From a virus (taxonomy: Duplodnaviria; Heunggongvirae; Uroviricota; Caudoviricetes), in the IMG/VR virus record IMGVR_UViG_2648501498_000002: DNA of 13,614 bases, one strand, 5' to 3'. The notes under the pieces were generated by a model. The model searched no databases. It was not told where the DNA came from and saw nothing but the letters and a program-made list of their open reading frames with translations. Below are positions 1,743-2,770 of this stretch, piece after piece. Numbering within the stretch: the first letter of the stretch is position 1; the number at the start of each line of letters is the position of its first letter. The position numbers and the translations under genes are program-made.

Positions 1743-2183
1743 ATGAAAAAACTAACCTTTGAAATTCGATCTCCAGCACATCAGCAAAACGCTATTCACT
1801 CGGTACAGCAAATTCTTCCAGACCCAACCAAACCAATCGTAGTAACCATTCAGGAACGCAACCGCAGCTTAGACCAGAATCGAAAGCTTTGGGCTTGCCT
1901 TGGTGACGTTTCGCGTCAGGTTGAATGGCATGGTCGCTGGCTGGATGCAGAAAGCTGGAAGTGTGTGTTTACCGCAGCATTAAAGCAGCAGGACGTTGTT
2001 CCTAACCTTGCCGGGAATGGCTTTGTGGTAATAGGACAGTCAACCAGCAGGATGCGTGTAAGCGAATTTGCGGAGCTATTAGAGCTTATACAGGCATTCG
2101 GTACAGAACATGGCGTTAAGTGGTCAGACGAAGCGCGACTGGCTCTGGAGTGGAAAGCGAGATGGGGAGATAAAACTGAATGA
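1743..2183 (+). CDS. ninB: NinB (recombination protein, Orf family)
   Basis: ATG at 1743 preceded by gggggagaggga (SD-like). 146 aa, MKKLTFEIRSPAHQQNAIHSVQQILPDPTKPIVVTIQERNRSLDQNRKLWACLGD..., matching lambda NinB in length and sequence. The longer ORF-track start at 1725 adds six residues with no RBS. Confidence 0.88.
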   Translation: MKKLTFEIRSPAHQQNAIHSVQQILPDPTKPIVVTIQERNRSLDQNRKLWACLGDVSRQVEWHGRWLDAESWKCVFTAALKQQDVVPNLAGNGFVVIGQSTSRMRVSEFAELLELIQAFGTEHGVKWSDEARLALEWKARWGDKTE

Positions 2184-2770
2184 ACAAATACCGACTTATT
2201 TACGCAGATCCGCCTTGGCAATATCGCGACAAAGCCAACGATGGCAATCGCGGTGCTGGACATAAATACGATGTTATGAATGTTCAGGACATTTGCCGAC
2301 TGCCAGTATGGGATTTAGCGGATCCAGAATCTTGCTTGTTAGCGATGTGGTGGGTGCCGACACAGCCAGCCGAAGCGCTAAAGGTAATTGAGGCGTGGGG
2401 ATTCAGGTTGATGACTATGAAAGGCTTTACTTGGCACAAAACCAATAAGCACAAAGGCAACAGTGCGATCGGAATGGGGCATATGACCAGGGCAAATAGC
2501 GAGGATTGCTTGTTTGCTGTTCGAGGGCGGTTGCCTGAGAGAATGGACGCTTCCATATGCCAGCACTTTACCGCACCGAGAATGGAGCACAGTGCAAAAC
2601 CACCGATCGTAAGAGACATGTTAGCTAAGTTGCTTGGCGACGTGCCGCGCTGTGAGTTATTTAGCCGCGACAAAGTGACCGGGTGGGATATGTGGGGCAA
2701 TCAGTGCGACTCCGATTTTGAACTGGCTCCCGGCATGGCGATTAAACCATGCAAAATGGTGATCGCATGA
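2180..2770 (+). CDS. DNA N6-adenine methyltransferase (DPPW motif; MT-A70/Dam-like orphan MTase)
   Basis: 196-aa ORF with ATGA overlap to the ninB stop. The N-terminal YADPPWQY is the canonical motif IV (DPPY/W) of amino-methyltransferases. It occupies the slot held by ninC in lambda. No adjacent restriction endonuclease gene. Confidence 0.75.

Follow-up and report, generated by a model that had tools for sequence, protein, structure and literature searches.

The 13,614-nucleotide stretch of viral DNA that we analyzed (hereafter the window) carries, inside the nin region of an Escherichia coli lambdoid prophage, a gene for an MT-A70 family (beta-class) N6-adenine methyltransferase of 196 amino acids (2180–2770, + strand), which consists of the catalytic domain alone. 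Judged from its homologs and its genetic setting, the product is likely to be a DNA m6A methyltransferase of one specificity or another, and the narrower reading that we favor, with modest confidence, is that of a stand-alone, Dam-like enzyme that would methylate DNA at GATC in the lytic phase.

As read from the ORF list and the Pfam matches, the window covers the early-right, late-regulatory and packaging segment of the prophage. The 3' part of O (86–685), P (682–1383) and a Ren-like gene of 96 codons (1380–1670) come first, followed by a tR2-like intrinsic terminator between ren and ninB (1696–1729, + strand), which the terminator scan recognized from an 8-bp GC-rich stem and a T-run. Next are ninB, encoding an orf-family recombination mediator (1743–2183, + strand; Pfam NinB, E=1.6e-54), the methyltransferase gene, ninD, encoding 57 amino acids (2767–2940, + strand; Pfam NinD, E=4.9e-36, from residue 7 of the ORF that opens at 2749), ninE (2907–3083), ninF, ninG (3243–3848), a Ser/Thr phosphatase gene (3845–4510) and Q (4507–5130). 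Downstream of Q are a low-GC insert, a P21-type holin gene, and genes for lysozyme, Rz/Rz1 and a Rha-family protein, and the window ends with Nu1, A, W and the start of the portal gene. ninH is absent (3848–4510) and the phosphatase start directly overlaps the ninG stop, unlike several related prophages, in which ninH lies between these two genes. The low-GC island between Q and the holin gene (5200–6900; GC 0.32–0.41 against ~0.50 in the flanks) is at the classic 'moron' position. It includes a 252-aa ORF (5367–6125) that is predicted to encode a multi-pass membrane protein, has no Pfam or PADLOC match and corresponds to a RefSeq 'hypothetical protein' in a related prophage, as well as a small ORF (6211–6369) annotated as DUF3927 family in a related prophage and a 132-aa ORF on the minus strand (6450–6848). 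The lysis cassette is separated from Nu1 and A, the terminase genes, by a Rha-family/ORF11CD3 regulator gene (8287–8904) and a minus-strand DUF3950 ORF of 63 amino acids (9092–9286). Scans for Rfam families and tRNAs gave no match in the window. GATC occurs 35 times across the window, against 52–59 expected, a count that says nothing about specificity.

The original prediction had described a 196-aa ORF with a DPPW catalytic motif, translationally coupled between ninB and ninD and standing exactly where lambda has ninC, and each of these points is borne out. The frame is found in the ORF list and the letters at 2180–2770 on the + strand, and residues 10–13, which form catalytic motif IV (D10-P11-P12-W13), are encoded at 2207–2218 on the same strand. 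At the upstream junction the ninB stop codon TGA (2181–2183) overlaps the methyltransferase ATG (2180–2182), and at the downstream junction the methyltransferase stop codon TGA (2768–2770) overlaps the ninD ATG (2767–2769), which we take as the ninD start because the NinD Pfam match begins there and NinD is called there in related prophages. Both ATGA overlaps support translational coupling to the two neighbors, and a Shine-Dalgarno-like run, GGGGAG (2164–2169, + strand), can be read within the end of ninB, 10 nt 5' of the methyltransferase ATG. Tightly packed genes with ATGA junctions are the norm in nin regions (PMC8022706). In the blastn comparison with lambda, the segment 1600–2183 (ren to ninB) is 95.4% identical, ending at the last base of ninB, and the alignment restarts at 2765, 2 nt 5' of the ninD ATG; the lambda counterpart between ninB and ninD is the 873-bp ninC. 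Because lambda homology ends and resumes precisely at the two gene junctions, the locus is, as read from the alignment, a clean single-gene cassette exchange at gene boundaries. Lambda NinC, a PAPS-reductase-like protein, shares with the methyltransferase the slot between ninB and ninD and the ATGA-type junctions, but the two sequences are unrelated.

The slot directly 3' of ninB is polymorphic among lambdoid phages, containing NinC in lambda, a PF05869 Dam-family gene in SfI, an annotated methyltransferase gene in 933W, the MT-A70 gene in the window and nothing in phage 21 and HK542. The SfI dam product matches PF05869, and ST933Wp34 of 933W carries a DNA methyltransferase annotation that notes similarity to the methylases of HP1 and T1. 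Like the window gene, these two lie right after ninB with an overlapping start and encode orphan adenine methyltransferases, but their Pfam family differs from that of the window enzyme; they are positional analogs rather than homologs, and probably functional analogs as well.

An MT-A70 profile, the conserved motifs and an MT-A70 fold prediction agree on the assignment of the protein to the N6-adenine (amino) methyltransferases. Pfam MT-A70 (PF05063) matches with E=4.8e-25 and 88.9 bits (cut-off 23.9) over positions 1–172 of the 172 in the model and is the sole Pfam family at E<=0.01, while PF05869 and PF02086 give no match; the proposed comparison of the MT-A70 with the Dam/D12 class thus comes out for MT-A70. 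PHROG 359 'DNA methyltransferase' (E=8e-107) and the PADLOC Type II MTase model MTase_II (E=4.9e-70) also match, and NCBIfam has no match for the methyltransferase or its neighbors. The DPPW motif lies near the N-terminus and is followed by the C-terminal cofactor-binding block, i.e. the permuted beta order. This block, S138-x-K140-P141 ... E159-L-F-x-R163 ... W172-G-N-Q175 (2591–2704, + strand), is defined by invariant alignment columns and by the HMMER alignment to Tetrahymena MTA1, in which it pairs with the cofactor-binding part of MTA1 and the DPPW motif pairs with the DPPW of that enzyme. D10, P11 and W13 are invariant and P12 is nearly so in alignments of 19 and 45 sequences, and the 45 homologs, which reach down to 68% identity, have 56 invariant columns including D10, P11, W13, K140, P141, E159, F161, R163, W172 and G173. 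All of the motifs conserved in the family are kept, and the loss of essential motifs on careful alignment that had been named as a possible objection is not seen.

By sequence, the best solved relatives are the ciliate DNA 6mA enzyme MTA1 (E ~1e-10) and human METTL3 (~1e-6). The AF2 model has a pLDDT of 77.9 and a pTM of 0.80, with low confidence in the loops 18–30 and 95–104 only and pLDDT <50 at residues 95–104, and Foldseek places METTL3, MTA1 and METTL4 at the top of its matches (E 1.7e-12 to 2e-10, TM ~0.6). The match is as good to an RNA enzyme (METTL3) as to a DNA enzyme (MTA1), and the fold search does not separate DNA-acting from RNA-acting proteins. The protein consists of the catalytic domain alone, and no target-recognition or DNA-binding domain can be recognized in it. 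It belongs to a family of 12,539 representative clusters at E<=1e-3, in which longer relatives have inteins or fused ParB_N or HTH domains; ParB_N and HTH domains typically bind DNA. Two regions stand out as variable: a low-confidence loop at residues 85–103 (2432–2488, + strand), flanked by conserved strands, and a weakly conserved C-terminal tail at residues 176–196 (2705–2767, + strand). Several MT-A70 relatives (P0124, P0136, P0139 and others) match the query in two stretches that are split near residue 93, and LAGLIDADG, intein or homing-endonuclease domains are found by Pfam in a few long relatives, which suggests inteins or other insertions at this loop.

The gene is already catalogued and of a characterized kind, and as such is an ordinary finding. 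In the assembly collection, 1,134 index blocks list the identical protein, and in all six prophage contexts that were read it occurs in a ninB–methyltransferase–ninD cassette, with ninB upstream and a ninD/ninE/ninX nin part downstream (ninD is called in four of the six). These six prophages differ in their replication, Q, lysis and packaging modules, and include P22-like ones. By megablast, 39 of 5426 complete E. coli genomes carry the gene, and the copies listed are named 'MT-A70 family methyltransferase', a name that RefSeq also gives to near-identical copies with 2 amino-acid differences; the Stx allele is present in 258 of the same 5426 genomes. The closest phage homologs are those of Erwinia phage vB_EhrS_59 (82.5%), epsilon15-like phages (76–79%) and Stx2a phages (64%). 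The enzymes of the epsilon15-like phages (epsilon15 gp, Tyrion gp29, phiV10) and Erwinia phage 59 share the loop of residues 85–103 with the window protein (19/19 identities for epsilon15 and Erwinia phage 59). The Erwinia phage 59 gene also lies downstream of a NinB-like gene, whereas its counterpart in the epsilon15-like phages occupies the early region close to int and not the nin region. We found no determined specificity for the epsilon15-like or Erwinia phage 59 enzymes.

Our preference for GATC is drawn from stand-alone relatives that have been characterized. First, PhiBZS1_p32 of Serratia phage vB_SspM_BZS1, an MT-A70 protein, was expressed alone in Dam- E. coli and rendered plasmid DNA MboI-resistant and DpnI-sensitive (PMC7556043); it and the window protein share 44% identity. 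Second, M.EfaBMDam of Tn1549 is GATC-specific, as cited in PMC7556043. A protein from an E. faecium conjugative element, 41.5–43% identical to the window protein, is probably M.EfaBMDam, since it shares 41% identity with BZS1_p32, the value published for M.EfaBMDam. Third, M.EcoGV of the O104:H4 Stx2a phage methylates GATC in vivo and is highly similar to the PA8 enzyme discussed below, according to PMC10810198 and PMC6602927, the first of which adds that the GATC result came from over-expression, which is prone to off-target methylation. The window protein is homologous to this Dam-like stand-alone subgroup throughout the catalytic domain (44%, ~43% and 64% identity, respectively) and has no other domain fused to it, and a six-sequence alignment that includes BZS1_p32 and the probable Tn1549 enzyme has 54 invariant columns. 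In phylogenetic terms the window protein is bracketed by these three stand-alone GATC relatives, which makes GATC the parsimonious site to predict for it. PhiBZS1_p32 and M.EfaBMDam resemble it further in belonging to the same Pfam family and in being stand-alone, nuclease-free proteins of ~180–220 aa with only the catalytic domain, encoded on a temperate phage or mobile element. They differ in gene location (next to int/xis in BZS1 and in the conjugation module of Tn1549, compared with the nin region in the window), in a 24-aa insertion that BZS1_p32 has in the loop at window residues ~91–92, and in that their GATC specificity is experimental while that of the window enzyme is predicted. The slot shared with Dam-family genes of other lambdoid phages provides a second, independent argument for the GATC prediction. 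GATC specificity is given for the VT2/933W-type enzyme in PMC6602927.

The rival that survives best, which we regard as possible but doubtful, is a DNA adenine methyltransferase of non-GATC, relaxed or nonspecific recognition that would provide broad anti-restriction cover. Methyltransferase specificity can shift quickly, which counts against the GATC reading, and a bare catalytic domain without a recognizable target-recognition domain is in keeping with such recognition. The PA8 homolog alone is weak and not substrate-specific, and relaxed-specificity prophage methyltransferases are well known (PMC7556043 for OS31_p25; PMC4659465), but the nonspecific phage enzymes cited there belong to other families. 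The loop of residues 85–103 also differs from that of the Stx type, to which GATC has been assigned, with 7 of 19 residues identical to the Stx2a-phage type. However, the GATC-specific BZS1 enzyme has its 24-aa insertion in this very loop, so the loop is probably not the specificity determinant, as far as the alignments tell, and all three characterized stand-alone MT-A70 relatives are GATC-specific despite great differences there.

Unlikely, in our estimate, is the alternative that the protein is an RNA m6A methyltransferase that acts on 16S rRNA like the PA8 enzyme and modifies host ribosomes in phage development. The window protein is 64% identical over 187 aa to this enzyme, M.EcoPA8orf6770P, which was studied by Gong, Chakraborty and Koudelka (PMC10810198). 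Alone in vitro, the PA8 enzyme was nearly inactive on DNA, including unmethylated GATC, and its activity was weak and not substrate-specific; in a 1:1 combination with PNB-2, a wHTH protein encoded just upstream that confers the rRNA preference, it preferred 16S rRNA/30S over DNA by >13-fold in SAM-consumption assays (PMC10810198). Action on RNA is likewise consistent with the presence of METTL3 and METTL4, both RNA enzymes, among the closest solved structures. The PA8/M.EcoGV type further resembles the window protein as an MT-A70 protein with the same DPPW and C-terminal motifs, encoded by an orphan E. coli prophage gene. Nevertheless, the rRNA preference came from PNB-2, and tblastn finds no PNB-1 or PNB-2 homolog in the window (best E 1.8) and no match at E<=1e-3 in a 24.6-kb prophage locus with the same cassette. 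The C-terminal tail of the PA8 enzyme, a feature of the full-length STEC isoform, has been proposed to matter for PNB-2 binding (PMC10810198), and this tail is not conserved in the window protein, which has 6/22 identities to the Stx type over residues 175–196 and is ~10 residues shorter. Of the features of the PNB-2 holoenzyme, the window has the catalytic subunit homolog, lacks an adjacent PNB-2 and does not conserve the tail. Location and regulation differ too, the PA8 gene being an early-left gene close to int that is co-transcribed with PNB-2 and the window gene a member of the nin operon that has no PNB-2 beside it. With no PNB homolog, an unconserved tail, a different loop at residues 85–103 and a different operon, a PA8-like, PNB-2-dependent rRNA mechanism is unlikely in the window. 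The modified rRNA base was never identified (PMC10810198), and the three other stand-alone relatives methylate DNA at GATC. The MT-A70 proteins of the Stx2a phages 06-3462 and PA8 are 100% identical while their upstream genes differ: PA8 has the 143-aa PNB-2 (L007, 2851–3282) and 06-3462 has 55-aa and 76-aa ORFs (L004, 2101–2498), which share only their last 9 residues (YIDEFENAL) with PNB-2. This difference implies that the rRNA-targeting partner is not always present, even for an identical enzyme. A PNB-2-free action on RNA (ribosomal, phage or host transcripts), or on the single-stranded DNA replication and recombination intermediates of NinB/Orf and NinG/Rap, seems to us about as improbable as the PA8-like activity.

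Somewhat less probable again is that the enzyme depends on a partner, encoded elsewhere in the prophage or supplied by the host, and is all but inactive alone, or that the gene is a decaying passenger. Eukaryotic MT-A70 enzymes are heterodimers, such as METTL3-METTL14 and MTA1-MTA9 (PMC7544214), and the PA8 enzyme alone is nearly inactive in vitro (PMC10810198), but PhiBZS1_p32 is active when expressed alone (PMC7556043). No conserved partner gene travels with the cassette, and ninB and ninD both exist in lambda without an MT-A70 gene. A wider tblastn search of the window with PA8 PNB-2/PNB-1, the 06-3462 upstream ORFs, Tyrion gp30-32 and epsilon15 gp30/gp31 gave nothing convincing, the best match having E=0.005 over a 31-aa stretch. 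The Ren-like protein (1380–1670) was considered as a wHTH partner, an idea that arose from a vaguely similar protein (BLASTP E=0.53 to the Ren-like protein) encoded just downstream of the methyltransferase in Erwinia phage 59, and was rejected, as it does not align to PNB-2 and as lambda has ren without an MT-A70 gene. Decay is at odds with the full-length ORF, the retention of all motifs and the occurrence of the same protein across many mosaic prophages, and also with the variation among nine gene copies, in which 11 nucleotide sites vary compared with 3 residues.

That the enzyme is the modification half of a restriction-modification system, as its match to the PADLOC Type II MTase model might suggest, is very improbable, as no nuclease-like gene is detectable in the 13.6 kb and the flanks are nin genes in all related prophage loci. 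The orphan status originally proposed from the lack of a nearby cognate nuclease holds: Pfam and PADLOC detect no cognate nuclease among the window ORFs, and no nuclease families in the 13.6-kb window beyond the terminase nuclease domain and NinG. The 252-aa ORF in the low-GC island and a few small ORFs match no family at all in these searches.

The tR2-like terminator places the nin genes, including the methyltransferase gene, under what would be N-dependent delayed-early control, and the + strand has no promoter-like sites in 1300–3400. By analogy with lambda, a gene in this layout would be expressed in the delayed-early phase of the lytic cycle, after N antitermination, and would stay silent in a lysogen, in agreement with the report that prophage methyltransferases are usually transcriptionally silent (PMC4659465). 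The comparison of the methylomes of a lysogen and a cured strain, which had been suggested as a check, is probably uninformative for this gene, since it lies in the repressed pR operon behind the tR2-like terminator and host Dam would mask a GATC signal. To our knowledge, Dam is already present in all Enterobacterales hosts, and a second GATC enzyme may nonetheless bring a selective benefit in such Dam+ hosts. A rationale for a phage-borne GATC enzyme is offered by the virion DNA of lambda and P22, in which Dam sites are left under-methylated as replication runs ahead of host Dam (PMC8022706). In the sequence of events that we propose for the Dam-like, lytic-phase enzyme, the one-gene cassette in the nin region would encode a SAM-dependent enzyme that is transcribed from pR only, after N-mediated read-through of tR2. 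The enzyme would methylate replicating phage DNA, with which host Dam fails to keep up, and the progeny DNA would be packaged fully methylated. The likely benefit would be that the DNA is shielded in the next host from restriction that is sensitive to methylation, or that the phage controls Dam-dependent processes on its DNA.

The locus is a further case of mosaicism among lambdoid phages, where the position after ninB is occupied by interchangeable genes that are not related to one another, or by no gene at all. If the Dam-like, GATC-methylating reading is true, little changes, as the gene would be one more orphan Dam-like phage methyltransferase; lysogen methylome surveys would probably miss genes like this one. 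As a partner-less close relative of the Stx-phage enzyme, the window protein could help settle the disputed choice between DNA at GATC and 16S rRNA as the substrate of that enzyme. The window enzyme would gain interest only if it acted on RNA or single-stranded DNA, in which case it would be a lytic-phase epitranscriptomic or single-stranded DNA modifier and not a Dam mimic.
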